Below, piece by piece: positions 1-59,608 of a stretch of 64,000 nucleotides of DNA. The stretch comes from Candidatus Omnitrophota bacterium (GTDB lineage Bacteria; Omnitrophota; Gorgyraeia; VGKN01). The stretch's first letter is position 1; every line of letters starts with the position of its first letter. The notes under the pieces are model-generated. The model did no database searches. It saw only the letters and a program-made list of their open reading frames with translations, and was not told the DNA's origin. The stretch is from contig JAZDNB010000009.1 in assembly GCA_043800345.1 (NCBI GenBank), positions 27,340-91,339 on the forward strand, given 5' to 3'. Both the position numbers and the translations under genes were made by a program.

Positions 1-245
1 TAGGGGTAAACATAGATACGAGGGCACCGCCAACGAGGCAAGCCATCGTAAAGCTCCTCGGACCTCTTTCTAACATCATCCTCCTTAGCCTATCCTCATA
101 CCTCCTTGCCAATACCCAGCTCTCAGGGTTCCTCGGCGCTCTCACTATCTGGGTGGTTATCTCTTCAGCGTTCAGCATCGTTGCCTCAGTACGCGGCTAT
201 ACTACCTATAAGACAGGCGACCTCTACGAGGCGGTAGAGCTGCTC
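1..245 (+). repeat. Copy 1 (3' portion only) of the hydrophobic module. The window opens inside this repeat.
   Basis: Encodes GVNIDTRAPPTRQAIVKLLGPLSNIILLSLSSYLLANTQLSGFLGALTIWVVISSAFSIVASVRGYTTYKTGDLYEA. Aligns to 12328-12575 and 14455-14700. Confidence 0.85.
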
Positions 246-3200
246 AGTCAGAAAGACATATCTCCACCAGAAGACACGGTATCAAAACTCGAAAAACTAC
301 CGGAAGTTTTGGTTTCTGCCCAGGATTTTATTAGCGGTGAACATGATGATAATATAGCGAATGATGTTAACACATTATTAGAATCGTATAAGTCTTTTCC
401 GGTATTGGCTGTTATAAGCCTTGTATTGGTACATCTACGTGCACAAGGGCTTAATAAAACAGAATTTTTAAAATCACCCATCGGAAGAAAATTATTATTG
501 AGCAACAGCCAGTTAGATTTCATTTTAGAAATAGCCCGCTTGGGTCTCATAGATAACCTTGAGCAAAAACTTGCCCCGGAGAATGAGAATGCCTTGCTTG
601 AGGCATTACAAAGGCTTTCTGCTATGACAGGAGGCCAAATTTCTATAAATGAGATTTTTGAAAGCATAATTATAGCTTTTAAAATTGAACAGATGAATTT
701 TGGTATTGAAAAAGGTAATTACCGTTCTTCTTTGATAAAAAGGTCAAGGTCTAAAGATAGACATGTTGAAATACCTCTTGCAACAAAGGGGTATTACAAG
801 TTTTTAAAGCGTCTAAGGAGAGAGAAGGTAAATAATATCGTTACCGAGAGATATGTAGCGATGATGGTAGATTTTGATGACACGATAACGCTCGATATGA
901 TAGCAGAGGAATTGAGAAAAGGACATAGGCTTGCCGTTAATACGGCACGAACGGCAGTAAATCTGTATTTGTTCCAGGCGTTACTTGATAAATATGGACT
1001 TACCGAGGAACAGAAAGGGTATCTCACCATATATATGGATATGGGAGCACGGAAATTTACTTATTCGAACAAACAATTTATTGAATCAGAAGAATTTAGG
1101 GCATATTGGTCTGATCATGAGCTACTGGGATACGGAGAAATTTGGGTTGCCCTGCAGAGTACCCTGGAAATGAACGGTTACTCAGGTGATCTTATTACGC
1201 AAACAGCTCCTTATAAATTATATGTTGATATAGGAAAAGATACACCAGGTTCTGTTGCAGAGTTAACCAAAAAGTCCGACTCTATCGCTCGGGACCTACA
1301 GAATAATTTAAGGAAACTTGGATATAATCTCACGGTTATAAGGGCAGGAGATTCAAAGATTATTATTTATCCTGCAGGTATAAATAAACAACGCGCAGCA
1401 GTAGACTATGCCTCATCCCTCGGAGTTTCTCAGGATAAAATTCTTAAACTTGATGACCGCGGGGCAAGCTGTTTTAATAACGGCTTCAGCCTGGTGATGA
1501 TGCCGGGTGCAATTTGGCTTGATGCGGATACAAGGACCGATTTTGCCATTGTTATTACCCCTTCTGATTTACAGAATGAACTTGGGGGACTAAAAAGAGG
1601 ATATGAGGCGACATCGTCTATCCTTGGAACATTTATTATCCTTTCACAGTTACCAGCAGGTACGGATTCGCAATTTATCTCTCTTGTTAAGGGGTTATAT
1701 TCGTTGGATAGAGAAGTGCGTGCACGTACCATACATATGTTAGCGCGCTATAATACCGAACTAGCTATCAGGTATTTAATCGCCTCATTATATGATGATA
1801 AGCAAACAAGCCAGGTAGCGCTTGATTATCTTATTAATTTGAATGTCGGCGACGGGACAGTTGAACGGTTATTAGTTGAAGCCGTAAATCAACCGGAAAA
1901 GTTTTTAGAATTACCGTATACTCAATGTGCTATTCAGAAGGCAAAGAAGAGATCAGCCTCCAGGGTGATCCGCGGATTAAGCCTTCAGGCATTAGCGCAA
2001 AGAGGTTTGGAATTTGTTGACAGACGATCGCTAGCAATCGATGTTCGTGAAATAATAGAAAAAACCCTTAAGACCGATCCGTGGACATGTGCCCAGGAAA
2101 TTTTGGTGTATGCGCAGACAGGCGCAGAAGGCGTAAAAGAATTTCTTATTGAACTGGCAGCACAGGAAAATGTAGAGATACGTGATGCAGCCCTACAGGG
2201 CCTCCTTTATTTGTTAACGGTTGATGATAAACCTTTCTTTTATAAGGCATATGAAAAATCACGTAATAAAATAATATTTGCATCTGTTGCGGGAAAAGTT
2301 TTTGCAGATGATTTAGACGGGTTTTTATCTATCTTAAAGAAAGCTGAAGATGCATCTGTGCGCAGTGCGCTCATCCGCTCACTAGTTTATTCAAAAGTAG
2401 ATAGTGAGATTATGGGGCAAATGCTGCTTGAGTGGGTGCAAGAAAACAGAGTTGATGAAAAAGAGATAATCGCCGTTGCTTTTATAGCAGGAGAAAGATG
2501 TTTACCGCAGCTAAGCAAACAACTTTTTTCTTATCTTTCAGCAACAGCAAGCGTCGAAATTCGTCTAGCAGTTACTATTGCCCTGCACCAGATTATATCA
2601 GTCTTGCCCGTTTCCCAGAATAATCTAAGAGACGACATAATCTCAGGATTATCGCTCGAAGCAGCTAAGACATTAAGTATTAATCCAGAGTTAAGCTCTT
2701 TTATTACCAGAAGTATCACCGGTTTGTTGGGATATCCTGATGTTTCTACTTTTCCCATAGAGAATTATTCCGAGAAGATGGTGAGAGATATAGAAAAGTT
2801 GTGCAGACAAAACGAATATATACTTTCTGTTCGCCTTGCACCTTCATCGCTGACCAAGGGATATTGGGTACCCGGTTCAGACATAGACCATATTAAAGTA
2901 TATCTTGACGCCCGTGCCGATGTGCAAGAAATTAAAACTTTAAAAGATGCGTTTGTAAGTATATTCAAGAGATACGGGGTATTTTTATCGATTGAACCCG
3001 TGAGAGTTGAAACGGTTACCCCTGATGCAATACCGTCTCCTCAGGATGAAAGTAAAGCCAAATTGGCATTATGGGATAACGGTGTTTTTTATTGGGATTA
3101 TGGAAGTATTTATCAGCTTGGTGAAGATTTTGAGAATTGGCTTTATGAAGGTAGATTTGTAAATCCAAAATTTGAATATCGTATCCTTATGATGTTCTAT

Positions 3201-30200: not shown

Positions 30201-33200
30201 TTAAACACAACCCAATGGTACCGATATGTCGCATATACGCTTTATTTCCTATCTCAGATGATACGTCGGTCAGAAGGAAGGACTCTCGATCAACCCGGGT
30301 TGTATATCTTAGTTGACGGCAGACCCGAGGATAAGGCACTGCCCGTAGGAGCGGGGCTCAGTTCTTCGGCGGCATTAGACGTTGCAGTTTCAATCGCCTT
30401 CCTTGGGTTAACCGGAAGAAAACTTACCGCAAGCCAGATTACGGCTGCCTGCCAGGAAGCAGAGCATGCCTTAGGTTTCCCCTGCGGAGCACAGGATCCG
30501 TTCGGGGCTATGCGCGGTTGGCTTCCCGGCGCAGAGCCGGATAAAATGTACGGACAGCTTATGGACTGTCTGCCAATGGTGGATGCAGGCGGTAGGCCTG
30601 TTTTTAATGCAGAACTTGTAGAGCTACCACCAGGACTTAATGCCGTATTAATAAATACAGGCGCAAAGAGCCCAAGATGGCCGCTTGAATTTTCCGCAAG
30701 AGTTGCCGAAGGAATGCTGGGTACGTTTATGTTAGCGCATATGTTACGTCAGAGATTCCAGACTCAGTTTGACGGACTTCTCAGAGAAGGCGATATGGAG
30801 GAAAGATACTATAGCGATGAAGCAAGCGGTGTCAGGGTAAAACCCGAAAATGCGGGAACATTCCCCTTATTTTATAAACCTTTCCTTGTTTCTTTTCCGG
30901 AACTAAGAAGACTGGGAATAGATATAAGCGAAAGAGAGCTGGCGCATATGATAGATATGCTGCCAAAAGATATGACCAAGGCGCAACTGGTAAAGATTCT
31001 GGGATGGTTACTGTATAACGATCTTTTTGCTTTAGGCGGGCTTAAAGAAGAAAATGTCGATGCTGTGTTTACGATGCTTGCAAAAGGCATTGAGGCAAGT
31101 TTCGACGGCAAAGACTTCGAAAGAGAACGATTGGAAGAGCTAAAAGCTGCGATTAGAAATGAACTAAAAGCGCAGGTAAGCATGCAGGAATTAGAACCTC
31201 CGTCTGCGTCAGTAACAGTTTTTGAAGAATCAAAAGTAGCGAAAGCCTCAGAAGTAGAAGAGAAAGATATAAGAGGCGTAATAAGGGATGATCACGATAG
31301 GCTTTATTCCGAAGCAATGGGGGAGGCATTGGCATTGAGGGCCGTAACCCAGCCCACCAATGTGGTTATATGTCTTACTACGTATGAAAGCGCGGAGTTT
31401 ATAGAACGAACACTCGATGAAATCATGAAAGAAATAAAATACTTCCCCAATTTTTACCGTGTTCAGATATTTGTGTCTCCAAACGGACCGGGATGTAATG
31501 AGATAACAAGCCGAATACAAGAATTTTTCCGCACCAGGGCGCCCGGTTTTGCTTCCCGTGTTTCTGTCTTGCCGCTTACCTTGGGAGGACAAATGTATGC
31601 ACAGCAGTCGATGGTCAAGACGATTAAGGCGCATCCAAAATTTTTCGGGGAAAATCCGATGTTATTATGGATAGAAGATGATGTAAGATTTCTAGACGGT
31701 TCTCTCTATAAAGTTGCGGAAACGTTAAGGACACAGACGATAGAAAAACGCCAGGCCCTCCTTGTAGGGTGCCGCAAAGTCAGGCTTAATCCGGAATCGG
31801 TAAGACAAAAACCGCAAGGGATTTTAAGAAGAATTATGGGCTCAGTCCTTAACGGCAGCGAAAATGAGGATTCGCTCACCAGGACACAACACCTTTCGCG
31901 GGCTATCCCTTCCATGACAGGTTCGAACCTGGCGTTATGGGCTGATGCATGGCCTCTTCGAACATACGATGCGCTTCTCTATAATAAGGTTGGCATTTAT
32001 CCCGATACCGTGCTGCTCAATCTCTTTCATCACTCGGTTCCCGAAGCGGGCATGCGTACCATACCGGTTGAAGATGCAGTAGTATATCAACTTTCGTCGA
32101 GTTCCTTTAGTGAGCGTTTGAGCCGTGAGACAGCTCCCCGCTCAAGAGAAAATTATTTTCCTGTAAGACACGGAAGGATTCTTATAAGCGGTACTCCTCA
32201 TCCGCTTGACTCACTGAAAACGCGTATAACAGTTTTCCTGCGCTACCTCGTCTATGCATACCTGACCGAGCCAACGAGGCGCCGCATAACAAGATCCGGT
32301 TTGACAAAAAGTATAGAAGAAGCCACCTGGACAAGGGCGCAAGAAACATTGGATTGGTCTGACAAAAATACGGATGTCATTCAAGTCAGAACCCTGGATT
32401 CTCATAGACCCGAACATCGTATCCTGCAAGAAGGGATTACTTTTACACAACAACTGTTAGCATATAAATATGCTAGAGAAGATAGGATGGTGCAGGGAGG
32501 AGAAAGATTTGGCATACGTGCAAAGGAAATAGAAAACTCGCCAGCTGCAACATTAGCTATACGGGTTATGAACAAAACACTTAGCCGCCTTAGGAGGGAA
32601 TATCCTCACTCCCGATATAGTGTCGATGACTATAAGCATCTTTTGGCGTATTCTGTACTTGCGCAAGGCTCGCCAAGCGAGATCAGGGCGTTTAAGGTAT
32701 TTTTATTGTCAGGGATGAGTGCAAAAGCAATGAAAAAACGTATTGTCGAAATGCTGAAAAATGGTTTATATGACCTGGTAGAACGCGAAATTCTAAATAT
32801 AGTGGATGCCGATACTATAGATGATGTTCTTCCTTATACGATAGCATATGATAATACTATTTCGCCCAAAAAACGCATAGAGATACTGCTTACCTATCTT
32901 ACTACGGGACAACTGCTTTATAAGGCGGAAGAATTAATCCCTGAAAGATTAGCGCAATCGTATGCAGATATATATAATCAATATACGAACCCTTCAGGGA
33001 AGTGGTTATTTAAAACTACCGATGCGGTATCGTGCGCGCGGCTCTTTAAAGCAAAGCGGCGTATCGCCAAAGGTAACATGGCAGCGGTTGAAAAGTTAAA
33101 CAGAGAGTTTATCCGAGGGTATTACCAGCTTAACCCAAGACAGCGAGCGCAATTAAGTTTGGCACTTCTTAATGAAGAAAACCCGCAATTGTTAGAGCGG

Positions 33201-34280
33201 CGCGTTGTCCCTTCCCCGGAAGCACTCGGTCTGATTTGCGTAGATACCAAAGTCGGAACCCTTGATATTGTAACCGACCCACAGTATACAGCCGAGCATC
33301 CGGAAGCCTCCTTTGCCATGGAAGCGGGAAGCGAAACTACTAATGCCGCCCTGGCACTTGCGAATCTTGGATATGGTGGAATTACGCTTATTCGTCCTAC
33401 CGGTACCGGATTGGTTGGTCAATATTCCAGAAAAAGCATTGAGCAGTATAAAGGTATAACGCCAGTATTCGTCGATACAAAACATGATGATAGGCCGTAT
33501 ATTGCATTGTCTCCTGCGCCGCAGTCTATTCTAAGTCCCCCGAGGCATACTATTAGTCTAACCGAACGCCGTAGGCTTCTCGCTGCTTTTAATGAAAGCC
33601 TGCAAACATCAAAAGAAGCAAGGATGGTACTTATGAGCGGGACCTCATTTGGCGCCATAGACATTATACCCGAGGTCATCGCAAAAACAAAAGAACGAGG
33701 TCTTAAAAGTGCGCTCATATTAGGAGAGGGTTGGCCAAAAGAGTTGGTACTAGACATTATTGCACATCAACCCGATATAATGACAATGAACAAAGATGAA
33801 TTTAAAGTATTATGCGCATATACGCTTGGAGAGAGGGAAACGGCAGCTATAATGTGGGATACTGTTACAGGAGAAGAGATTGCCGCGCTCGCACAAAAAA
33901 TTGCAGATAAAACCAAAGGTATTATCTGCGTTACTCTTTCCGATAAAGGAGCCGTTGTCGCTACAGCCGAGGAGAGTTTTATAGCAAGCAGCACGCAACA
34001 AGCAACCGCAAAGACTACGTTACGTTGCGGAGATGCTTTTACCGGTTATTTTGTCTTGGAATTATTACGCGGCAATACGTTAGGCGAAGCTTTAAAATTT
34101 GCAGTTTGTGCCTCAAGTGCCAAGGCGCAAATTTCCGGACCACAGTTTCCCGACCGTGCTCAAATTGAACAATTGGCACCTCCCGTGATTGCACGTCCGG
34201 TTATTCATGAAATTAAACCTATGAGTGCTCCGTTCTTAGATGATTTAGAAGCCGAAGAAGCTCTTGCTAGGTGTCTGTAA
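1..34280 (+). CDS. Giant multidomain megaprotein, 5'-partial (more than 11,375 aa in window). Reading frame 3 is open from nt 3, so the gene starts upstream of the window. The ATG at 153 is only the first in-frame Met. Stop is TAA at 34278-34280.
   Basis: No stop codon in frame 3 from nt 3 to 34280. The upstream 150 nt encode GVNIDTRAPPTRQAIVKLLGPLSNIILL..., which matches repeat modules inside the ORF. All antisense ORFs across this span are under 160 aa. Many conserved enzyme motifs occur in this frame (see domain features). Confidence 0.9.
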   Translation, partial: GVNIDTRAPPTRQAIVKLLGPLSNIILLSLSSYLLANTQLSGFLGALTIWVVISSAFSIVASVRGYTTYKTGDLYEAVELLSQKDISPPEDTVSKLEKLPEVLVSAQDFISGEHDDNIANDVNTLLESYKSFPVLAVISLVLVHLRAQGLNKTEFLKSPIGRKLLLSNSQLDFILEIARLGLIDNLEQKLAPENENALLEALQRLSAMTGGQISINEIFESIIIAFKIEQMNFGIEKGNYRSSLIKRSRSKDRHVEIPLATKGYYKFLKRLRREKVNNIVTERYVAMMVDFDDTITLDMIAEELRKGHRLAVNTARTAVNLYLFQALLDKYGLTEEQKGYLTIYMDMGARKFTYSNKQFIESEEFRAYWSDHELLGYGEIWVALQSTLEMNGYSGDLITQTAPYKLYVDIGKDTPGSVAELTKKSDSIARDLQNNLRKLGYNLTVIRAGDSKIIIYPAGINKQRAAVDYASSLGVSQDKILKLDDRGASCFNNGFSLVMMPGAIWLDADTRTDFAIVITPSDLQNELGGLKRGYEATSSILGTFIILSQLPAGTDSQFISLVKGLYSLDREVRARTIHMLARYNTELAIRYLIASLYDDKQTSQVALDYLINLNVGDGTVERLLVEAVNQPEKFLELPYTQCAIQKAKKRSASRVIRGLSLQALAQRGLEFVDRRSLAIDVREIIEKTLKTDPWTCAQEILVYAQTGAEGVKEFLIELAAQENVEIRDAALQGLLYLLTVDDKPFFYKAYEKSRNKIIFASVAGKVFADDLDGFLSILKKAEDASVRSALIRSLVYSKVDSEIMGQMLLEWVQENRVDEKEIIAVAFIAGERCLPQLSKQLFSYLSATASVEIRLAVTIALHQIISVLPVSQNNLRDDIISGLSLEAAKTLSINPELSSFITRSITGLLGYPDVSTFPIENYSEKMVRDIEKLCRQNEYILSVRLAPSSLTKGYWVPGSDIDHIKVYLDARADVQEIKTLKDAFVSIFKRYGVFLSIEPVRVETVTPDAIPSPQDESKAKLALWDNGVFYWDYGSIYQLGEDFENWLYEGRFVNPKFEYRILMMFYLGYLSREKIERILKVGQVLPEELEIVRRRILSTLDIPISANARRVLSYLHILTMAGSLTEIYPKLILPAYRRDYFLKGLIELGNIGLVTLDTESGMLTTPFYHYESKIQVVDALQEPGILKWLKARMEPGLYARDICVMISSVQEADLAINKALEEGLPQVQLFISPGKDFDAKQVGQILDFIDKRRAELENFPILAGIKLSITPDSDILSLRESVGIANGPLVKLLREKHMRLDCISFSNVRIPWIDIATRTNGLEILRHNLDSLHFFTSSATIHHLDIARIEISASEVEKLVDLIDGGKLEPNKLEKIFAMLAEFGIQVELPEARLGQDKVSIYFEEVIKSYNARAPPSRQIQFTDSSRHTVALLPVVKRLGVLEETLQQIFESRRLSEQLIAYLDSYLTAHYTRFDGDLEALITSLIDSYSLELKTDFSQVIYTGREKGIDHSLWNDMPEELRRVLIRRKLDGADISKDIAHFLGNIKPEDIEWFDIEDFSVRTRHIYKINYKIQVKIKNVPTPISVFVKITTSAEETFWGETAQLLGLSNLRVVGLPEKGKGLLLIEAGPGRTLDDISANDLQNRDIAKAVFSALGSYALHDVLSIGDASLANNLVGENISNILSIDHVECLRNELNIGVQYKADRRGLYLVTKLRDTLSPEDITELLVAYEKSYIASYMHILKNADDIERLIIKYFGQDSDALGIFRKNLLLVGSDICGFFDTSEKMILADMPITKAMEHIRNKVTDQDQARITAREVMNEMGLTSELHIKLINDALFSELSIKDTLSQLRRVDISQPSGQLENCVMKILRRLAEKQLLQEPEIVGMLDNMIAENEEIVQQLRAGRSTYVPQLLLDHQSVEDLTRAFNAMGSLYGRLRFYNWRTKIDERGGVNRDWDFEHGSMEEFDEYLRENNVYWAYYNRTHSGEHKRDLKDRVSGLEIPISHQKEGLRTIADVIKKTVIDFIHQKYGEDLDVEVISIRVNGSRFYKLSTTDKAADIDNVTVVTARRDGQEIPIRDIIYELPLSARIPGINLTGMAITSSYYVNGHSHDPHTMLTYVSSLRSGIPIVGPHAYQSTMPEDIQLLDVINLIGSGSDYLRRGPGYYRKWVNRTAEVYLVLFKLGLLENFDLNAHTAMIDKIHNAIISNDQKFLSEFLAWAQGEEEHLTALVIKRLEEYSHRRKLVLLNGFYSTADSEEASALQDTLRSLNSEFDDIQSAHKEIPVTEHYWSGWHHRLHRCYDDTASLESHKELLAAEDKTFDITLAQKSPYGDILNALFERYALTTGIAGIMFSSQEAWAYSIYLALAKNPHTPVTLLRQIYNVVEAMKEGGRNVLAPSSVFYQIELALANNVNIDTKLLKKIANANLPDSEIGIAAQKTLKIRAAAKELAKSNNLLIAYRAAKKLQDYGSVVSPLLVRMIRNINPKDMFTPLLATRILGTVGDVTATSTLIDLLNQASNHYLGKDHKEALGYFAAEALGNIGDDRAITVLFSHLGFFRYDDAIRRATHSPVAFAATQSLLKMNKDPEMTSAINQKVIRYIHDILTYDGDMNTNNMEYIEFCYRSQNIVYLLARLDMDRQEKITLLKKVIEKTSEVMMPDLLMIEIMHEAISALGELKAEECVPLLIATFYDKRAPPEVRAEIIEALGDIGTTVAAEFIKNIAATHEKKPKPQVNVDPERLVYNALSRTMLRLDARQHKVTEDHGLKIWHASFHGLYDSGIRGLGFPDGGGQIYYHISVAKQLGMLDEDLEVRSLVRASGSQDWDINVDFGAPIDRLSARAELDRIPFGPDGVINRYDLWHFMDDFDRNMTRYMEYAGMPDVLHIHSADAGTLALARWAKSHNIPVVFVVHSPGLVKLEALTASRLPILRTIGEDPRREFLGLKESMELIMRIEAENEFLELSDKVVTYTDHEIREQWKGYPAYEAAIRANKFYTIYPGIDHDVFKPTSALTPEELERTKPVRDRIINEIRRQIKEAGIIGPVFSIGTLARLVQRKNFEGLVESWTQSSVLVNNSVIFIAGGSADVLMKGETTEALRGTEKEIYRSMVENARRVQTEDGQDASKRLIFLGNLEHETDVPEYMRILADGIPQEGVEHPRPDHPEDWAVYPYGVFINPALYEPFGFTLLESAACGAIPIMTANGGAIEVIDEAVNGFIVNPSAPESIRRALLTVFFSSNRQTMSEAAITNVERNFSWPRHARETLKVYRTVTGEETEVAESLVQKTFDYYDSFIAAPQYVVSETTFTPEAKIDVLLVEPQDFVDTAVAIGKDIIGRFSDRSLREKIEEYRKREVRERVNHEILRAESIFQEAERIRSENPDSRGAEEFVKKTISLYAQAENIYAKIGVALRSPDDIISRQQQIARLRESYIVTSGYEDTRPDQIWYVTCCDRDIEPLLGSYLEELKLWGFGGDRIYDPIEGGTYYKKVEIAIFEDSTDETIINKNLAIIEKYRSLGLKIRYCGIEDSLVKDAPELGPRDRVRKQLWYTSQRDIIRFFGKERALRLLGMSPEKFDLPAERQITETGRRGYGNAREGVRLWALYEYNRMPHNVLLGSIDDDEPIGQIIQSASGYKVLRHATNWFNNYGRMFERYPDISILSGNVTGDSAIEGVAPNIFVKTCSHLLTLLDFASFRSPHDAWPAEDDIRELYRAQAPNPAYGLNPTAHAHINENMAARKYAQATKKQYRFPIPEQGQLTLGEQLRMILEDINSVYFGRWLTRPILYRHGGVVIGAQDEPIPYIRKAPEGPVMGGLLLMRKDAFVSWPLPKGGFHDLRYASPTHLRLLPKFGFPVHGVFMPARHQRTQEYRFDLMQSEEMLDFQKKINYGLEDEIGNRLFFAMLDFYHIDSAEGLQTMPFDASVFAREHPEIYDRIVKDAVRTQITNIKEINRLVGLLKAMFNQQYWWQLDSNFTQAITELKRFVAIAEANYGTYDITDLNVRIRHYMEETGFAALTAYLNGMRDGIEVVHSVISEKITLPPVKSVSELPISEPQTQSTLANFFTYALKGKFTVLNWITRILGLPAIVMEELISHYLIGNFFARVHLQSPTLSYVGVNIDTRAPPLRQAIVKLLGPLSNIILLSLSAYLLSSTHLSGLLSVITAWSLVASVLSIVASVRGYATYKTGDLYEAAQLLKGKYPRLISFLGIEESRLLSTLSKISITCAIAAVVTLYSFFRVNIFSSYTRPIVGADVFISFLAVAAWLMWVREIFNTIFNRALYILRKGIPELTRRSLVVLIATGIIVMTSVLAPFTPTLNSDTSYMASTSTPLVQKNNFAQLPSQRLPIIQVTPELYRAPAAQEALRQITKEEQTTLNVIFSEYVALKNTLRNNGITQEEINAQAARFLTSQLSARCPRLYPLYREFERLCTRYGEEGRVLLALGAGRDPIFAPLISFFSGYLGFGKYIKGEVPTHAALVSLTGEGSPIMYEMIPGKDVRATSLIEFFMRYPTAQLYLFPKTDTTLFDELSVYLQQQVGAKSAFGYFSWVNGRFFGGYCSEFIYSVLIKIFGSHFSIALPAYPPTNGWLFFSPFVMGSKIISPLQLGGLTIDGKPLQLIFEGPGFSETVAAALVRNIGNLFIWAGNRLINVVNNTVSPVFQQVLLFVATGVIPLLVLAKRRLFSSRPAQETTNEAEAEGLTLREKLEIISGVSFIEILVIKLLSNYVAIPLAIAIPLLASFILYAAVKRIPLETQEDARDIDKRDTTQSALANFFTYALKGKFTVLNWITRIVGLPAIVIEEVISHYLIGNLFARVRLQRPTLGYVGVSIDTRAPPTRQAIVKLLGPLSNIILLGLSAYLLANTQLSGLLSALTIWAVISSALSIVASLRGYTTYKTGDLYEAAQLLRKTKKQLELSADDEIMLGTMTHGWGTGIRWMVEKESIRDLWTISKQFEFQFGNLKKRFLKTEHAKLSPYEQKIFDKLGELYVALTAYKPSSVTIGKALEGILSEARRQEGIDIAELGAALTELEQRYANIENEFKQQKTHEEIAANLKQAMAAALRAMMPGTLQEEITSHPFWGRAIGFMVEHYIPVRDPRYVGRPIQELYLILQETINTLFTEYHYKQDGQYEDSYKEVKARARENALLAVGIIRPILNEVFQNGPQVVIGEDENLRRIVTSLENQKRHLTELDYQEYIALAPEERKSREPVITRMVEEERSKKMHWLAWPGQNEFIHELFMVRAEVLIGEDANLHHRFANLIRQKRRLAELAYQEYIALAPEERKSREPVITRMVEEERSRKILWFAWPGQNKFIHELFMLRAELETVYLLAIAGNTMDFGDQKFVARIEQAQKEGKSSFDFLLEDVVKIFEDGLSAPHNVDEMLADLVKGRNLLGARQKRMGDDFSDEYRPKITVLYDNAGEDILELLHVEFLLRLGFNVNMAGRALPVINDATADELRDIVTCVSFPDYMDRVDKARKALGIKNDAAWRQLTRLRGDFNVNFRIRQRCKALSSGSRLYGTVPAQMSEECKKEIAESFMVIGFGQGNFESVWPVLWTRPFYHVLMLKTAARLGKTFSDHFKDMSRIILCNPATNREEEEKAEQQLAVSAGGLKALNADDPRVIAVLNAMRAHFGERLPSSLSNIFIRVENFIPGGVVGETQIAMAAERAVKKMFGKNVLIGPDEEQLRLLGQAGNEDMWFVVLSGKYLYIGDNTHIGPNSIVDNSRLGANCLVVDSMLDNTSLSAGTTARRLINRRGILSRGLKLEDYGEIMEHGSIEPLSARKVFLRELRKKGVTIIAPWLTYIDSSVTADQIEEGVVLLPGVVIRQDDEAKGSVRIGKGCVLGLGAKITNTVIESSVERPTEVISSSLMDCHVGSGIKMTLEELERESIVSGTLKPQEEQLPVGLLFDEQGSITGRRYRINPHSVLETVSNEEYYRLSQAAMKEYRQDLRKRLADSREKAEELAKEKGRPVTARKRNNVTRSIEFVLSLAHLPQILAERYVYDCLSKTTAVSPLQRSKERYNRAAFCEHPFADDNETTYYSFLRRELYKIPDESKRLICALKLVALGNYFDRDEVLRSDGKFAHLVRLIREDGLEKALDDEDIRRYFSATFEDSQQFVDDLLASQKGIRTIDARGKGTVLLSANDCGLEAAMHMILAEALTDCNFKVVITANNSPMGHDLDVRDVHDLFGKDKSAVVRVYGKEQLVSEELVRCFNEGRVRVISDGSGTRGINPVDVSSDLYDVIMNQEDALAWILTGGSNLSNVLPVGREIPQPKLYLANNDRKVQIVVGKANMNVEEERALIYYQPYKKILKMERDLEEQWSEISDELMIQPSFMVWTREWHDERKVPQFAKNATSKIKEALRFLETKDESLIRRARLLEVELVESGPHIKTRFRSSFDKVFFVNPKTGTVYIDKKFFESVIVRKDSELILATILGKAATMVQSLETYERENHIISKEAISSCNRLSETTGKMIYLEFDNVVDDFLATEETKAARSRTERFINILPARIRPAISRSLEQINTLLLKALDGIHKRLCEIVFNQAHLSRLTNDLELVADAIKVKDLRNKRIKNILNGLGGSFVRFSTLRMIYRVLMFGNYLTYRGIGRNGEVRSVALNHISSHGVYNFLRVIDDFQRGRNVNLGELSVYVQNYSELLKDIRSHLEYLQTVHKRLAAIPSVEYRNGIHITYERWAGGSIYEFVINNENISIGEVVKVIEEIASEQSHEPRTLEPVGVVREMPTFRLLGRPGVIGGFFRVRGGKIDAGIQQVILSQQSERRTKAQAYFPKREVTYGYIAPEALHPLAATFIQMREFSDDAEGYNEAEDFVNAITKAKTPKDILYAAFFQAMTPHKPREFSHKKTKYILDLDLIEILGEVLFILGQFKESDFPEGSYLYWHEAMRALKASMLSQEVASHQVRLDPMVKEVVIDLFSKIKKANLHNHLSGSVRPELLLITLLKSYKARERFVEVIVVNDEQVYRNKRKYKTLQEAYEEDKTQDPRIEALSFNEWVDLKFRRAFELPSDSMKILSSFISQYSDTYGFDCLRELDIRELLKSEPVLVEQWQNAVRHMWSFIEYKPFEARNEIDLMGYFYKLEPVYCVLKSDIGNEATRLFVKDLAIDLFTKDGVRVFELMTAGSSQTAVMETGGVIRQKSREAIAIELENKLVPTLEGLIEAEKELNGKLATGLQVLLLKEDYRNLGVEKMRIEQEALSRAGDLSGEDIIKYILGPYRQRTGVTNEDLELTLGTRVFNRMRNAMGTGGVTRQIADEIGPEALQRIYVRLEVLARVQEVIDAQVDGIIALKERWQTEKPEYAQRLVSIGTAGEEIDFVSWTHRRALRKASQYGFKITAHAGEEIRDPIASVERVKYVAKSVDDGGYQANRVDHATIISVHPERLQGFRSPRELFELRQKQIEATQLLVQMGVPVTKCLVSNRWISKVLLGDDEMQIHFLLKIMPSLIVLSPDNRQVFGRVDGVSEELIRADTSPTLEELWEYNCNIRYGELLTIVDNGFRSTFVQPERVQSVLASEPEETSRLAATSGAEEEAIGPEEGFTAKSLISMFIGIGLGALLGIAFHSVLAGGIVGFIFFSQILSIIIATSRLKHPVLIEDGNVKALKERPALSNFFKLAGHTADTVYINPYLPEFFQRWYLFHEQNEQLLEKRLPKPITELIATALDVSYIPISVGSLMLQKAKSIQARIPSGIFVWKKTEAFPSVPVSSGLDEQVFVSEASRREIVFFGSGYIGLVAAACLADKGHNVTLIDVNEDTISKLQKGEIHIYEPGLKDLIARNKERLHFVLNRAGTDTPEAVAATERADIIYTCVGTPQSDDGSANLTYVKEVATTLGKVLKNVSRDKIIIMKSTVPIGTTEGENFGEVIYSIVDEQSRKFIHLVDNPEFTREGQAVSDFMKPDRTVIGIKEADAYAQAEMRLFYSAFEGKGYGEFLLTDVRSAELIKYGSNGFLALKISFINELSILAERFGFDIKIIADHIGKDRRIGRAFLNASLGFGGSCFPKDVQAFCHTVEMAGVSDEIPHQVIDVNERQKKRFVKRIADSLRKVGAQGPVTVSVWGLAFKDNTDDIRESSSLYIIRDLIESAKAAGIDITIRAYDPNPGACHNTSSRTIAQGGLKELIDEGSVIICDNIEESLEGSYAMVIATEWKNWSRQTGRPFGLNDKKNLRYIEGRLKGRLIFDGRNLIDKPALLGTGLTYHSVGRPVYYGNYIKNFISSFINLFRQCTFYGYVIYYCLSTPGYRRLLFKKEGLGFTLWELGRLSALYLKATFAYIIYEVAENKGANGDEVLKGMGYDRRIGPEYFKPTPGRGGPYLPTATKLLVQIGEDFLKREDIPDVTDKQKQLRARVRNLELLASIDKANEGQVIKVMARLRTALGVEKVAGGNIAVLGTAYKGAASSIEGSVAMRIITDHLAYCSSIVVFEPDPEARARAKKMLKNSTNVIFAENMDDLKNKARGVGGLDALLILTDNEEFKLLDTSGIRKRTAKMVVYDTCNVTDPANFTDKPHVIYIRTGRPMFMGMEVLPRNGNRGSPVLARAAETQHSLLVSTLYNNFNSAGTIITRIVWGVLWLTALVTVGISHEFTHMISALSLSLKVTRKREFYKGNISIDGPPQRVNIAKALAPLAGPFIIPLFLTAVSLLLNVQIDIPNWIKILYLGFSVVSFIYDLSSEGDLAELYRPLKGRVQNFASKLFGADASLLPKKIGLAVVIFGTIGLLNIVLMCIFLPYPDVLLILWGNFGFGVLLFIFAILGWLDTLSERIEKFYYMHLWQKALPSYYTHEAWKVAKENRVIFPYLHGEGSRVSEPNTYKYFTLFKFGDPEAIREYSEYMASHIRYDISSDIEPEESEYYDFFDPEKWVVLSKVHPVPPLHSTQMLGRLLAERLKVKLVSLNERSSFGNYSKLSLDEREKVVYGNLVVENPEEVRGKNVIIYDDVSISGFTLMEMARAAFAAGARSVRAYTMFDPKNDPKFEIGAYRYLMYEHPELVLPILQSDMSIAQTAIKYLMRFASESPDAFENLMRQVKDERLREILDLVTSYLQITSKEDTLNPTPLFNIITSLLPARAYAERPDSEVKPVEIGFAVTVDRDGKTEVDHSLNANAIFSTPEIIEQVGAHLAKAVDDSIDISRFTPGAYPAGLHIVAPNRSGMLTAIALERQLGCSLHRFDEDFPWLKKGDAIIIAIDKPTRELLKILKICEAKGIFVAAVCTLTKNNISNVEKYLKRKGIPFVSSPHIHTMFGDLNVDMQDRELLAPLLTGESSLGERLQGLKQLKDKSLRGTLPNEFCDSMLTAMEDWPSPSLAVLYAYQMGYNYITFTDRRDITPEATKEALEAARILKISVCSPYYTTLKRATYYPEEIALQTQLLSAIPELDMFQRKVKESRGVLKRGIEHLNKDGITSPDPYLALSAQYSRQIEEIVQALCPVVLEHLRRTIPGFKLTEQDFALCIGGSAAGRTATLASDLEVDFIARDEKSADAVTEHFAPLLAQCLRTIGIEITPPDDLFRAQLRERHLIKVDKLFDYRVGAYSEQAKGLIRALSYEFAWGSKDVYSNFMASVPPELKPDIPHDIMSRMTEFTDGYLRLSEDGEGEFDGRNFVVSVDSERDLIMNVQRSLRVFQIGLFESLVRKLPQYLMSGLNPSLTEDAIPRTIPELLVFMNERGFFGDIIPQQEIEKVVLAWKRTIMARQIKVALTGGLNSAVSLGQLPPTLLNDFVILHDFILSHVITRRSIFQTKIQRLLGELAFSIFTRLMRDAADTTYDENSRHFDIRGTMRHAVTEQSRLLEAVRYLREAAAAYAAGDAEAYEKSLRAYGEYQRALYEDLKINYRNTDPSLEVLCEFANKLPKVLGASHIPGWGGNIGIWADEKDVIAIRRTITNFIRSDGYRNVLQKQYPDLSPKEINEKVMATVRGVIIFTPGPAANTVIEGDVDRLIEALRDPNSSTVALLKKIYGEEDTYRDGQKFAYYELARQRYLSLLEEFKRLHPDAKNIVVSRSGGRVIFAGTHSDYHYGRVLNAPTLSDTLVVMAINPLSNQVQANTMDELFPQASFNPERLDIINIPKEDLNTTQWYRYVAYTLYFLSQMIRRSEGRTLDQPGLYILVDGRPEDKALPVGAGLSSSAALDVAVSIAFLGLTGRKLTASQITAACQEAEHALGFPCGAQDPFGAMRGWLPGAEPDKMYGQLMDCLPMVDAGGRPVFNAELVELPPGLNAVLINTGAKSPRWPLEFSARVAEGMLGTFMLAHMLRQRFQTQFDGLLREGDMEERYYSDEASGVRVKPENAGTFPLFYKPFLVSFPELRRLGIDISERELAHMIDMLPKDMTKAQLVKILGWLLYNDLFALGGLKEENVDAVFTMLAKGIEASFDGKDFERERLEELKAAIRNELKAQVSMQELEPPSASVTVFEESKVAKASEVEEKDIRGVIRDDHDRLYSEAMGEALALRAVTQPTNVVICLTTYESAEFIERTLDEIMKEIKYFPNFYRVQIFVSPNGPGCNEITSRIQEFFRTRAPGFASRVSVLPLTLGGQMYAQQSMVKTIKAHPKFFGENPMLLWIEDDVRFLDGSLYKVAETLRTQTIEKRQALLVGCRKVRLNPESVRQKPQGILRRIMGSVLNGSENEDSLTRTQHLSRAIPSMTGSNLALWADAWPLRTYDALLYNKVGIYPDTVLLNLFHHSVPEAGMRTIPVEDAVVYQLSSSSFSERLSRETAPRSRENYFPVRHGRILISGTPHPLDSLKTRITVFLRYLVYAYLTEPTRRRITRSGLTKSIEEATWTRAQETLDWSDKNTDVIQVRTLDSHRPEHRILQEGITFTQQLLAYKYAREDRMVQGGERFGIRAKEIENSPAATLAIRVMNKTLSRLRREYPHSRYSVDDYKHLLAYSVLAQGSPSEIRAFKVFLLSGMSAKAMKKRIVEMLKNGLYDLVEREILNIVDADTIDDVLPYTIAYDNTISPKKRIEILLTYLTTGQLLYKAEELIPERLAQSYADIYNQYTNPSGKWLFKTTDAVSCARLFKAKRRIAKGNMAAVEKLNREFIRGYYQLNPRQRAQLSLALLNEENPQLLERRVVPSPEALGLICVDTKVGTLDIVTDPQYTAEHPEASFAMEAGSETTNAALALANLGYGGITLIRPTGTGLVGQYSRKSIEQYKGITPVFVDTKHDDRPYIALSPAPQSILSPPRHTISLTERRRLLAAFNESLQTSKEARMVLMSGTSFGAIDIIPEVIAKTKERGLKSALILGEGWPKELVLDIIAHQPDIMTMNKDEFKVLCAYTLGERETAAIMWDTVTGEEIAALAQKIADKTKGIICVTLSDKGAVVATAEESFIASSTQQATAKTTLRCGDAFTGYFVLELLRGNTLGEALKFAVCASSAKAQISGPQFPDRAQIEQLAPPVIARPVIHEIKPMSAPFLDDLEAEEALARCL
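860..1530 (+). other. HAD-superfamily phosphatase-like domain (IIB-like) in giant protein 1. Motif I is intact (FDDTIT); the C-terminal GDxxND motif is degenerate (LDDRGAS).
   Basis: MVDFDDTITLD matches the DxDxT motif I. Downstream ...GINKQRAAVDYASSLGVSQDKILKLDDRGASCFNNG follows the HAD-IIB layout (sucrose-phosphate phosphatase type). Confidence 0.45.
2790..3080 (+). other. Minimal Pol-beta-type nucleotidyltransferase motif (GS-x9-DxD)
   Basis: RLAPSSLTKGYWVPGSDIDHIKVYLDA. Confidence 0.35.
4690..5110 (+). other. Protein-kinase-like (aminoglycoside/choline kinase APH fold) domain, possibly a pseudokinase
   Basis: VKITTSAEE...LPEKGKGLLLIEAGPGRTLDD. SIGDASLANNLV matches HGDxxxxN with I in place of H. 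SIDHVE matches the IDxE (DFG-equivalent) position. Confidence 0.3.
7400..8170 (+). other. HEAT / PBS-lyase-type alpha-helical repeats
   Basis: Repeated xxALGxIGDxxAxxxL units, for example ILGTVGDVTATSTLIDLL, AAEALGNIGDDRAITVLF, AISALGELKAEECVPLLI and EIIEALGDIGTTVAAEFI. Confidence 0.55.
8290..9810 (+). other. GT-B glycosyltransferase domain (GT4), sucrose-phosphate synthase / sucrose synthase-like
   Basis: FHGLYDSGIRGLGFPDGGGQIYY resembles the SPS N-terminal motif HGLIRG...DTGGQVKY. The C-terminal EPFGFTLLESAACGAIPIMTANGGAIEVI is the canonical GT1/GT4 E-x7-E nucleotide-sugar binding motif. Confidence 0.7.
12155..12575 (+). repeat. Copy 2 of a ~420-nt hydrophobic (multi-TM) module: STLANFFTYALKGKFTVLNWITRI...SHYLIGN...VGVNIDTRAPP..RQAIVKLLGPLSNIILL...RGYxTYKTGDLYEA
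   Basis: About 80-90% nucleotide identity to 14280-14700 and (3' half) to window nt 1-245. The first ~70 nt are identical between copies 2 and 3. Confidence 0.85.
14280..14700 (+). repeat. Copy 3 of the hydrophobic module. Its 3' 245 nt are about 90% identical to window nt 1-245.
   Basis: Direct nucleotide alignment: taggggtaagcatcgatacgagggcaccgccaacaaggcaagccatcgtaaagc... versus window start taggggtaaacatagatacgagggcaccgccaacgaggcaagccatcgtaaagc... Confidence 0.85.
15483..15950 (+). repeat. In-frame tandem duplication, 2 x ~237 nt (79 aa); near-identical copies
   Basis: Both copies encode ...L(T/A)EL(D/A)YQEYIALAPEERKSREPVITRMVEEERS(K/R)K..W(L/F)AWPGQN(E/K)FIHELFM(V/L)RAE. Long runs of identical nucleotides between the two copies. 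Confidence 0.85.
15960..16770 (+). other. DUF89 (ARMT1-like damage-control sugar-phosphate phosphatase) -like domain, copy 1
   Basis: KITVLYDNAGEDILELLHVEFLLRLGFNVNMAGRALPVINDATADEL matches the DUF89 core (DNAGxE...D..L...V....K..P..ND.T..E). Confidence 0.4.
17080..17620 (+). other. Left-handed parallel beta-helix (hexapeptide-repeat) domain, nucleotidyl/acyl-transferase C-terminal type
   Basis: IGDNTHIGPNSIVDNSRLGANCLVVDSML and VVLLPGVVIRQDDEAKGSVRIGKGCVLGLGAKITNTVIESS show [LIV]-G-x-x-x-x hexad periodicity. Confidence 0.5.
17930..18860 (+). other. DUF89-like domain, copy 2 (more divergent)
   Basis: GTVLLSANDCGLEAAMHMILAEALTDCNFKVVITANNSPMGHDLDVRDV parallels the DNAGxE...ND.T motif of copy 1. 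Confidence 0.3.
20750..22400 (+). other. Adenosine/AMP-deaminase-like metal-dependent hydrolase domain
   Basis: NLHNHLSGS matches the HxHLDGS metal-binding motif. FKITAHAGEEI matches HAGE. RVDHATII matches the downstream His/Asp region. Confidence 0.55.
22650..22790 (+). other. Transmembrane hairpin (ISMFIGIGLGALLGIAFHSVLAGGIVGFIFFSQILSIIIATS)
   Basis: About 40 consecutive hydrophobic residues with Gly-zipper-like GxxxG spacing. Confidence 0.5.
23185..24640 (+). other. UDP-glucose/GDP-mannose 6-dehydrogenase domain. The N-terminal Rossmann domain, central catalytic domain and C-terminal domain all appear intact.
   Basis: IVFFGSGYIGLVAAACLA matches the NAD-binding GxGYVG. NPEFTREG matches NPEFLREG. 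LGFGGSCFPKD carries the catalytic Cys. GLAFKDNTDDIRESSS matches the FK..TDD.R.S motif. LIFDGRNLI forms the C-terminus. Confidence 0.8.
24780..25570 (+). other. Second, degenerate UDPGDH-like central plus C-terminal domains, with no Rossmann domain and no catalytic Cys
   Basis: LKGMGYDRRIGPEYFKPTPGRGGPYLPTA aligns to GIGLDxRIGxxFLxAGxGFGGSCFPKD with the Cys replaced. VLGTAYKGAASSIEGS parallels GLAFKxxTDDxRxS. MVVYDTCNVTD parallels FDGRNxxD. Confidence 0.5.
25690..26300 (+). other. Polytopic membrane module with HExxH in a predicted TM helix (GISHEFTHMISAL), resembling M50/site-2 proteases
   Basis: HEFTH lies inside a hydrophobic stretch and is followed by four or more further hydrophobic helices. 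Confidence 0.3.
26600..26910 (+). other. Type I phosphoribosyltransferase (PRTase) domain
   Basis: GKNVIIYDDVSISGFTLMEMA matches the PRPP-binding motif (hydrophobic x4 - DD - hydrophobic - x - SG - x - T). Confidence 0.6.
27420..27660 (+). other. Second, degenerate PRTase-like segment
   Basis: GLHIVAPNRSGMLTAIALERQLG...GDAIIIAIDKPTRELL. Confidence 0.25.
28150..28900 (+). other. GlnD/GlnE-type nucleotidyltransferase motif region
   Basis: FALCIGGSAAGRTATLASDLEVDFIA matches the G[GS]-x9-10-[DE]-h-[DE] Pol-beta NTase signature as seen in GlnE/GlnD. Confidence 0.4.
29950..31100 (+). other. GHMP kinase domain, galactokinase-like
   Basis: GRVIFAGTHSDYHYG matches the galactokinase signature GRxNLIGEHTDY. 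LPVGAGLSSSAALDVAVSIAF matches the GHMP ATP-binding motif PxGSGLSSSAAL. Confidence 0.7.
31340..32100 (+). other. GT-A (GT2-like) glycosyltransferase domain
   Basis: NVVICLTTYESAEFIERTL resembles the GT2 N-terminal ...IPTYN..E.L...L motif. LWIEDDVRF supplies the DxD-type acidic motif. Confidence 0.4.
33220..34160 (+). other. pfkB-family (ribokinase-like) carbohydrate/nucleoside kinase domain at the C-terminus
   Basis: EAGSETTNAALALANLGYGGITLI resembles the ribokinase GG.G.N.A.A.A.LG motif. C-terminal TTLRCGDAFTGYFV resembles the pfkB DTxGAGDxF signature. Confidence 0.5.
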
Positions 34281-34297
34281 TTTTATATTGCGAAATA

Positions 34298-34326
34298 TTG
34301 AAAGTTATAGCAAAATAAGGTATAAT
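34298..34326 (+). promoter_or_regulatory. Sigma70-type promoter for giant gene 2: TTGAAA (34298-34303), 17-nt spacer, TATAAT (34321-34326)
   Basis: Consensus hexamers with optimal 17-nt spacing in a 146-bp AT-rich intergenic region. The ATG is at 34427. Confidence 0.55.
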
Positions 34327-59579: not shown

Positions 59580-59608
59580 TTGACAAAATGAAAGGAGGTG
59601 CATATAAT
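59580..59608 (+). promoter_or_regulatory. Sigma70-type promoter for the efflux-like operon: TTGACA (59580-59585), 17-nt spacer, TATAAT (59603-59608)
   Basis: Perfect consensus hexamers with 17-nt spacing, about 150 nt upstream of the TTG start at 59755. Confidence 0.6.

Follow-up and report, generated by a model that had tools for sequence, protein, structure and literature searches.

A giant Omnitrophota reading frame that joins cytoplasmic-type enzyme modules with membrane-spanning clusters

We analysed a stretch of 64,000 nucleotides (nt) from a Candidatus Omnitrophota bacterium (assembly GCA_043800345.1, contig JAZDNB010000009.1, positions 27,340 to 91,339 of the forward strand; hereafter the window), more than half of which is taken up by a giant open reading frame (ORF) that we call P1. 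The evidence supports reading P1 as a single polypeptide-coding frame in which some dozen cytoplasmic-type enzyme modules are fused, with clusters of transmembrane (TM) helices between them. The explanation that we favour, and regard as reasonably probable, is that P1 is a membrane-anchored ‘beads-on-a-string’ multi-enzyme-cluster protein of Omnitrophota, with independent enzymes co-localised on the cytoplasmic face. Giant proteins occupy a large share of the very small genomes of Omnitrophota. P1 is unusually readable among them, having a complete UDP-glucose 6-dehydrogenase (UDPGDH) as well as further modules, several in number, whose active sites are intact.

Reading frame and enzyme modules of P1

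From base 3 of the window onwards the P1 frame is open, and its 11,426 codons include a single stop; the other five frames have 355-854 each. The ORF listing gives P1 as 153..34280 (11,375 amino acids, aa). GC content by codon position is steady in each 3-kb tile, and the full length looks coding. Window bases 1-252 represent the third occurrence of a 148-aa repeat internal to P1, showing 89% and 78% nt identity to the internal copies (12328-12579 and 14455-14706 in the nt repeat comparison), and the first 34 residues of P1 match the C-terminal end of this repeat. Since the window start cuts into a repeat copy and the frame is already open at base 3, P1 extends upstream and is longer than 11,375 aa. 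The original prediction, made from the sequence alone, had placed all of the enzyme modules in a single frame. This is indeed what is observed, and all nine motifs that it quoted were located at their sites in that frame.

A long frame could also be an artefact of misassembly across repeats or of a wrong genetic code. The internal repeats with their high nt identity, the window start within one of them, and an exact 46-mer from the window start that has no match in genome and metagenome contig collections all lean that way. However, one stop in so many codons is not attainable by chance or by in-frame joining of unrelated pieces, the coding signature is uniform along P1, and a wrong code would bring extra stops, not fewer. 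Independent Omnitrophota assemblies moreover contain giant frames free of stops, together with a homologous stretch of 1,400 aa that is collinear. An artefact is effectively excluded for P1.

Modules were searched for with Pfam and NCBIfam profiles on overlapping 1,000-aa tiles and with phmmer against PDB sequences, where GA denotes the curated Pfam threshold. About 13 Pfam families lie above threshold in P1 and three more just below it, with a maximum copy number of two, and about one third of the chain is assigned to any family. The features are listed below in window positions.

3..34280, + strand: giant ORF P1 with a visible length of 11,375 aa or more, its 5' end lying outside the window
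825..1502, + strand: HAD-IIB-like phosphatase module (DFDDT motif I, Lys in IYPAGINK, LDD), moderate confidence
1650-2252, + strand: weaker set of HEAT/PBS repeats
7350..8222, + strand: HEAT/PBS-lyase-type repeats (HEAT_2 1e-14, HEAT_PBS 1e-12; alphaRep matches)
8298..9827, + strand: GT-B glycosyltransferase (GT4), sucrose-phosphate-synthase (SPS)-like, by profiles, PDB and motif
12150..12923, + strand: 148-aa repeat copy (EELISH, RAPP, GPLSN) and TM cluster A, 5-6 helices, aa 4073-4257
13953..14720, + strand: TM cluster B, 5-6 helices, aa 4601-4829, with the second 148-aa repeat copy at its end
15912..18818, + strand: supermodule of DUF89/ARMT1 #1, left-handed beta-helix and DUF89 #2
20790..22472, + strand: adenosine-deaminase (ADA)-like amidohydrolase, borderline
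22650..22772, + strand: TM hairpin C, 2 helices, aa 7500-7540
23184..24632, + strand: complete UDPGDH, three Pfam domains above threshold
24765..25052, + strand: partial, degenerate second UDPGDH copy (central domain)
25695..26270, + strand: TM cluster D, 4 helices, aa 8515-8706, with HEFTH in the first helix
26616..26933, + strand: type I phosphoribosyltransferase (PRTase) fold with phosphoribosyl pyrophosphate (PRPP) loop VIIYDDVSISGFT (Pribosyltran 4e-9)
28254..28511, + strand: Pol-beta-type nucleotidyltransferase (NTase) motif, DUF294/GlnD-like, sub-threshold (19 bits, GA 21)
29943..30527, + strand: N-terminal half of a galactokinase/GHMP kinase (TIGR00131 8e-17, GHMP_N, GalK signature)
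31359..31832, + strand: claimed GT2-like segment (P1 aa 10403-10560), not confirmed
33309..34151, + strand: PfkB-family sugar kinase, 1-phosphofructokinase (1-PFK)/hexose-kinase-like (PfkB 3e-16; TIGR03168 4e-18)

The predicted HEAT repeats, SPS-like GT-B glycosyltransferase, two DUF89 domains, UDPGDH, PRTase, galactokinase and PfkB kinase were all borne out near or above curated thresholds. Specifically, the UDPGDH (P1 aa 7678-8160) scores 1e-50, 2e-40 and 7e-29 for its N-terminal, central and C-terminal domains and aligns to the full length of PDB 2y0e with 287 bits. It keeps every catalytic and cofactor motif (GSGYIG, STVPIGT, NPEFTREG, the Lys/Asn pair, GFGGSCFPKD and AFKDNTDDIRES) and, judged by these motifs, is apparently complete and active. 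The truncated second copy that had been predicted behind it is likewise present as a partial domain, where other residues stand in place of the catalytic Cys, Lys and Asp (GRGGPYLPTA; Cys to Tyr). The glycosyltransferase matches Glycos_transf_1 at 1e-14, the SPS glycosyltransferase domain TIGR02472 at 3e-58 (198 bits) and the H. orenii SPS structure PDB 2r60 at 1e-24, and its EX7E motif is intact (EPFGFTLLE). ARMT1/DUF89 occurs twice, at 5e-21 and 4e-6. The first of these domains keeps the metal-site motifs DNAGE, IND and GQGN (family pattern DNxGE, ND, KGxxN), and the second is degenerate and has lost them (NDCGLE). In the galactokinase module the equivalents of Arg37, Asp46 and Asp186 are kept together with the GHMP P-loop, Glu43 is replaced by Thr, and a profile scan gave no GHMP_kinases_C match. 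The PfkB module at the P1 C-terminus retains the catalytic Asp, with the GAG anion hole changed to RCG. Inspection of catalytic residues, the check proposed for telling active enzymes from pseudo-enzymes, accordingly gave a divided picture, with intact sites in the complete UDPGDH, DUF89 #1, the EX7E motif, the PRTase loop and the GHMP P-loop, and altered or dead ones in the second UDPGDH copy, DUF89 #2, PfkB and galactokinase.

Four further claims, those of a HAD-like phosphatase, a beta-helix, an adenosine deaminase and a GlnE/GlnD-like NTase, are backed by coherent matches that stay below curated thresholds. For the HAD module, DFDDT fits the DxDxT pattern following a hydrophobic strand, Hydrolase_3 is matched at E 0.059 and the Cof-type PDB 3dnp at E 0.008 across the motif III region. 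A single-sequence AlphaFold model of this module (predicted local confidence, pLDDT, 49.7) retrieved only HAD-IIB phosphatases among the Foldseek top 50, including ISN1, phosphomannomutase and sucrose phosphatase. From these four weak, concordant lines we assign a HAD-IIB-like identity with moderate confidence. The beta-helix, which resembles the GlmU C-terminal part, scores 24.5 bits with the Pfam hexapeptide profile (GA 27) and 3e-10 with NCBIfam GlmU. The ADA-like module scores 26.2 (GA 27) with Pfam and 6e-9 with TIGR01430; its HNH (HxH) and HAGE motifs align to ADA with about 210 extra residues between them, and the downstream His and Asp-Asp set of ADA was not identified in this module.

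Three claims fared worse, as profile and PDB searches recovered neither the early NTase motif nor the aminoglycoside-phosphotransferase (APH)-like fold nor the GT2-like module. For the first two there is no profile, PDB or motif support within P1 aa 480-2400. A homologue search with P1 aa 1-1200 gave none, so that no alignment is available for the HAD, ‘NTase’ or ‘APH’ region. The GT2-like segment (aa 10403-10560) has no profile or PDB match, and its model (pLDDT 39.1) shows a weak local GT-A resemblance limited to the first 80 residues. The proposed check by structure prediction was favourable for the HAD segment, though with a poor model.

Homologues, membrane segments and repeats

We searched 1.84 billion representative proteins exhaustively with HMMER using P1 aa 5100-6299 and obtained 18 matches. 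Eleven of these have E <=1e-10 and are proteins of 1,340-4,565 aa, and the other seven are weak matches (E 8e-6 to 8e-4) to shorter proteins. By source name the best ten matches comprise seven Candidatus Omnitrophota/Omnitrophica, two ‘bacterium’ and one without a name, most of them marked partial. The cluster members of the best matches are mostly Omnitrophota, one being binned as Syntrophorhabdaceae. With blastp, MFC1667530.1 aligns collinearly to P1 aa 4871-6254 with an identity of about 42%, and the supermodule of about 1,000 aa is common to 12 other giants at about 24% identity. As the window carries no marker genes, homologues of this kind (45% identity to MFC1667530.1 being the value used for taxonomy) are what speaks for an Omnitrophota origin in this analysis, and their support is strong though indirect. 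The DUF89 #1 motifs DNAGE, ND and GQGN are invariant in an alignment of six homologues that are 24-45% identical to P1 in this part. When 185,579 species-representative GTDB genomes were scanned with this alignment, 12 loci proved to carry the whole supermodule; 11 bear the title Candidatus Omnitrophota/Omnitrophica and the remaining one just ‘bacterium’. In three of these 12 loci the frame is open over the full 22.6 kb retrieved. Other phyla showed a single DUF89 domain only.

The neighbours of the supermodule differ among these relatives. One giant (L006) carries a guanylate kinase, a HAD domain, a polysaccharide deacetylase and a chitin-synthase-like GT2, and another (L015) carries a Peptidase_M54 domain and two PRPP synthetases. 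The giant family therefore appears, from these comparisons, to combine sugar and nucleotide enzymes as a mosaic whose order is little conserved, and nucleotide enzymes recur over the supermodule-bearing giants L006 and L015. Beyond the supermodule, blastp and phmmer found no counterpart of P1 modules in the retrieved Omnitrophota fragments; when all P1 and P2 segments were run against these fragments with phmmer (P2 being the second giant ORF, described below), only the P2 kinase-like region (in P0139) and one P2 segment (in L013) were matched. For the P1 UDPGDH-PRTase region, the metagenome scan retrieved nothing but UDPGDH genes of the ordinary single-domain kind (34-40% identity), and no fused relative of the UDPGDH part was found in the protein and metagenome scans. 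In the databases searched, the UDPGDH module reaches no more than 35-40% identity to any entry. The best matches to this region, at 455 and 417 bits, are two stand-alone tandem UDPGDHs (P0001 and P0002, 943 aa) that share with P1 the layout of a full copy and a second copy. They differ from P1 in that the identity is only 35% and in that the second copy of P1 is cut short and no longer has its catalytic residues; P0002, unlike the giant P1, is a gene of ordinary size that belongs to a cluster for polysaccharide biosynthesis. As a separate observation on genome position, a complete 4,565-aa giant (L002, contig k141_529575, P0129) lies directly 3' of dnaA-dnaN-gyrB-gyrA, by the presumed replication origin, and is followed by an autotransporter-type outer membrane protein gene.

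A crude hydropathy scan, not a dedicated predictor, places about 16-18 TM helices of P1 in the four clusters A to D. Clusters C and D lie within the block that runs from the ADA-like module to PfkB, and their helix counts are even (2 and 4), so that the flanking enzymes can share one side of the membrane. The two complete 148-aa repeat copies (P1 aa 4000-4147 and 4709-4856) are 80% identical to each other, and a tandem 237-nt (79-aa) duplication with 84% nt identity is found at window 15469-15942, just 5' of DUF89 #1.

The HEFTH of cluster D (P1 aa 8536) has a parallel in P2, where HELGH occurs twice within a 136-aa repeat whose copies are 63% identical. In layout, these TM-embedded HExxH modules recall intramembrane metalloproteases, a resemblance drawn from motif and hydropathy. 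The tetrapeptide RAPP occurs four times in P1 where 0.1 would be expected (P ~4e-6), at aa 1363, 2644, 4066 and 4775 (window 4239, 8082, 12348 and 14475). Related Omnitrophota giants repeatedly show [RG][AG]PP followed 13-73 aa on by HExxH or HExxxH (P0121, P0124, P0125/P0139, P0126/P0141, P0128/P0143, P0129 and P0130), and this combination looks like a recurring module. Neither the TM HExxH modules nor the RAPP-HExxH modules matched any Pfam family at E<=5, so that the M50/site-2-protease idea stays at the level of a resemblance.

P1 among known giant proteins and the weighing of explanations

ORFs of more than 20 kb are found in most classes of Omnitrophota and their functions are obscure (Seymour et al. 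2023, PMC10066038). The ‘Archaeovorins’ have been described as Omnitrophota giants with HEAT, GT5/GT1, TPR, NUDIX and glycolytic-enzyme domains and many TM helices (West-Roberts et al. 2023, bioRxiv 10.1101/2023.11.21.568195). They often contain SecA_DEAD and C39/S8, and prey attachment and wall degradation are the favoured functions (bioRxiv 10.1101/2023.11.21.568195); a divergent SecA_DEAD is present in most full-length giants (bioRxiv 10.1101/2023.11.21.568195). A later catalogue, which covers 916 proteins with lengths of >=10 kaa, set up a class called ‘multi-enzyme metabolic clusters’ (Nielsen & Lui 2026, bioRxiv 10.64898/2026.06.07.730766) and reported TM helices or a signal peptide in 94% of its giants (bioRxiv 10.64898/2026.06.07.730766). 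Both the multi-enzyme fusion and the reading as membrane-anchored cytoplasmic enzymes are already in this literature (bioRxiv 10.1101/2023.11.21.568195; 10.64898/2026.06.07.730766). Its domain content places P1, as far as sequence features can, in this described class of multi-enzyme metabolic-cluster (class 1) or Archaeovorin-type giants. Specifically, it exceeds 10,000 aa and is tiled by many enzyme Pfams of which none is dominant. It has HEAT scaffolding, GT1 (with GT5 in P2), HAD, sugar-metabolism and kinase domains with interspersed TM helices, and its sequence is mostly unique with some modules shared, its multi-module homologues being giants from Omnitrophota or from records titled ‘bacterium’. 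For Velamenicoccus archaeovorus LiM, a host-dependent or predatory bacterium, a 39,678-aa protein with dozens of TM helices has been summarised (Seymour et al. 2023, PMC10066038), and P1 can be likened to it, by description and not by sequence, as a giant Omnitrophota ORF with TM helices.

There are also differences. Unlike the Archaeovorins, the 19,700 aa visible in P1 and P2 hold no SecA_DEAD, C39/S8, NUDIX, pyruvate phosphate dikinase (PPDK) or methyltransferase domain. No P1 or P2 tile matched a SecA family at E<=0.01, though the N-terminal part of P1 outside the window could hold one, and SecA_DEAD is not universal in the giant class; no C39/S8 peptidase was found in the N-terminal 1,000 aa of P2. 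The P1 set of UDPGDH, galactokinase, PRTase, ADA-like module and two DUF89 domains is not singled out in either giant-protein preprint. P1 adds a well-dissected case, and a supermodule found complete only in Omnitrophota (with the one locus titled ‘bacterium’), but no new category.

Two familiar kinds of large protein were considered and set aside, and comparisons with phages, plasmids or E. coli were dismissed as irrelevant to P1. An RTX adhesin does not fit, there being no RTX or Ig-like repeat or HemolysinCabind match in P1 or P2 and a PfkB kinase at the P1 C-terminus; the original claim that P1 is not a structural or adhesin-type giant agrees with this lack of adhesin-type repeats in P1. 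An assembly line of the nonribosomal peptide synthetase (NRPS) or polyketide synthase (PKS) type was likewise rejected, since P1 and P2 have no carrier (PP-binding), condensation or ketosynthase (KS) domains and the module order is unconserved. Eukaryotic multifunctional enzymes such as CAD and the AROM complex catalyse consecutive steps with a conserved domain order, and NRPS/PKS hand intermediates over on carrier domains. All of these resemble P1 in that several enzymes are covalently joined in one polypeptide. P1 departs from them in that its activities are non-consecutive, their order is unconserved among relatives and the carrier, condensation and KS domains are missing.

These comparisons bear on the proposal of a ‘membrane-tethered metabolic assembly line’, of which one half holds up better than the other. 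Tethering of the P1 enzymes is plausible, with predicted TM clusters interleaving them. An ordered, channelled pathway is unlikely because the reactions are non-consecutive, module order is not conserved and carrier domains are absent. The activities (sucrose-phosphate-synthase-like, UDP-glucose dehydrogenase, galactokinase, hexose/1-PF kinase, PRTase, deaminase and damage-control phosphatase) do not form a single route, order is not kept beyond DUF89-beta-helix-DUF89, and several modules are degenerate.

According to the explanation that we favour, the TM clusters would pin the P1 chain to the inner membrane, and the SPS-like glycosyltransferase, DUF89 phosphatase, UDPGDH, PRTase, deaminase-like, galactokinase and PfkB modules would lie on the cytoplasmic face. 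These modules would work independently though co-localised, with no ordered assembly line. P1 and P2 would together bring sugar activation, the making of glycans and the salvage of nucleosides and nucleotides into one place, the envelope of a cell that is small and depends on a host, and the membrane-embedded HExxH modules may trim or cut the giant chain. UDPGDH, galactokinase, PfkB, PRTase and SPS-like glycosyltransferases require NAD+, ATP, PRPP or UDP-sugars, and as a result of this need they can only work in a cytoplasm. The cofactor-dependent modules argue for at least this subclass of giants being active at the cytoplasmic face or within another cell, and against an extracellular coat that degrades walls, and in P1 they are small expressible units suited to testing this question of location. 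A nucleotide-salvage theme also runs through P1 and P2, with a PRTase, a deaminase-like module, a uridine kinase and RNase J-like nucleases, to which the relatives add PRPP synthetase and guanylate kinase. Several points weigh against this explanation. About two thirds of P1 is without an assigned family, and several modules are altered or dead, namely UDPGDH copy 2, DUF89 #2, PfkB and galactokinase. For some giants, published topology predictions place the metabolic content outside the cell. The P1 topology proposed here would itself rest on crude hydropathy, with 5-6 helices each in clusters A and B and with the N-terminus and any signal peptide outside the window.

The Omnitrophota in which such giants have been described are tiny and probably predatory, and there are alternatives to the favoured explanation. 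One, which we take seriously but think unlikely, is a polyprotein: the chain would be cut by the embedded HExxH modules or by other proteases into membrane-bound and soluble enzymes, and fusion would serve co-expression and stoichiometry rather than a permanent tether. The TM-embedded HExxH of P1 and those in the conserved P2 repeat speak for it, as do the recurrence of [RG][AG]PP with a following HE(x)xxH in Omnitrophota giants, the excess of RAPP in P1, the Peptidase_M54 domain within the related giant L015 and the published proposal of post-translational cleavage by C39/S8 (West-Roberts et al., bioRxiv 10.1101/2023.11.21.568195). However, the HExxH modules match no peptidase family, neither a third metal ligand nor cleavage sites were identified, and in the P1 148-aa repeats the motif is degenerate (EELISH). 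A bolder combination, which we offer as doubtful speculation, has the giants forming a membrane-tethered ‘metabolon’ for salvage and sugar activation at the host or prey contact, with the HExxH and RAPP-HExxH modules as self-processing proteases. If this were true, the giant genes would be bacterial polyproteins that supply fixed enzyme ratios to the envelope.

The predation hypothesis put forward for the Archaeovorins would instead make P1 an extracellular or prey-directed effector, whose modules are displayed or delivered to attack or reprogramme the glycans and nucleotide pools of a prey or host. [quoted passage not shown] The NAD+, ATP, PRPP and UDP-sugars needed by the P1 enzymes are, however, unavailable outside the cell, Pfam scans of P1 and P2 gave no match to RTX, dockerin, lectin or secretion-signal domains, a perfect promoter-like site of their own precedes the TolC/HlyD genes and the window holds no type II secretion system (T2SS) or type IV pilus (T4P) genes; we accordingly hold this role to be improbable. 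Still harder to sustain, and in our judgement very improbable, is the view that P1 consists mostly of pseudo-enzymes, its enzyme folds serving with little catalysis as ligand-binding or scaffold modules of a structural envelope protein. That view would account for the degenerate UDPGDH copy 2 (Cys to Tyr) and DUF89 #2 (NDCGLE), the changes in PfkB (GAG to RCG) and galactokinase (Glu43 to Thr, with its C-terminal GHMP domain not detected), the 210-aa insertion in the ADA-like module, and the long spacers and HEAT repeats. It is at odds with a full UDPGDH that keeps every catalytic and cofactor motif and aligns to a solved enzyme with 287 bits, with the invariant metal-site motifs of DUF89 #1 across its six homologues, and with the intact EX7E, PRPP loop and GHMP P-loop.

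Second giant gene and downstream neighbours

The window contains four ORFs, all on the + strand, with P1 being followed by P2 and by ORFs of 899 and 450 aa. The features 3' of P1 are as follows.

34298-34326: sigma-70-like promoter match (11/12) before P2
34427..59404, + strand: second giant ORF P2, 8,325 aa
38555-38962 and 48260-48667, + strand: P2 136-aa repeats bearing HELGH
50294-51136 and 54284-55201, + strand: P2 RNase J-like beta-CASP metallo-beta-lactamase modules
59580-59608: perfect TTGACA-17-TATAAT sigma-70-like promoter before the TolC-like gene
59755-62454, + strand: TolC/OEP-like gene, 899 aa
62500-63852, + strand: HlyD-type membrane-fusion gene, 450 aa

P2 comprises an N-terminal anchor, a uridine-kinase-like module, a GT5 (Glyco_transf_5 4e-14), an alpha-amylase/GlgE-like module, two RNase J-like metallo-beta-lactamase modules and the two TM-embedded HELGH modules. 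The presence of two RNase J-like modules beside the uridine-kinase-like, GT5 and amylase-like ones fits, by predicted function, a theme of RNA-to-nucleoside salvage. P2 aa 599-1374 shows 44% identity to a section of an Omnitrophota protein that is 7,014 aa long. The first ~30 residues of P2 (MIDWQ... and a TM helix; window 34427-34525) match the N-termini of the giants P0121 and P0129 (MLSWQ..., MLDWQ...), which suggests that this shared start may be a conserved N-terminal anchor or leader of giants.

The genes next to P1 are P2 and the TolC-like and HlyD-like genes, whereas giants elsewhere lie near T2SS/T4P or glycoside hydrolase family 2 (GH2) genes; on the 3' side of P1 the window has no T2SS/T4P or glycoside-hydrolase genes. 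Since predicted promoters are found in both gaps, the giants may be transcribed separately from the genes downstream. The TolC/OEP-like protein itself shows an unusual pairing, with an AMIN domain match and a UvrB/UvrC motif N-terminal to its OEP repeats.

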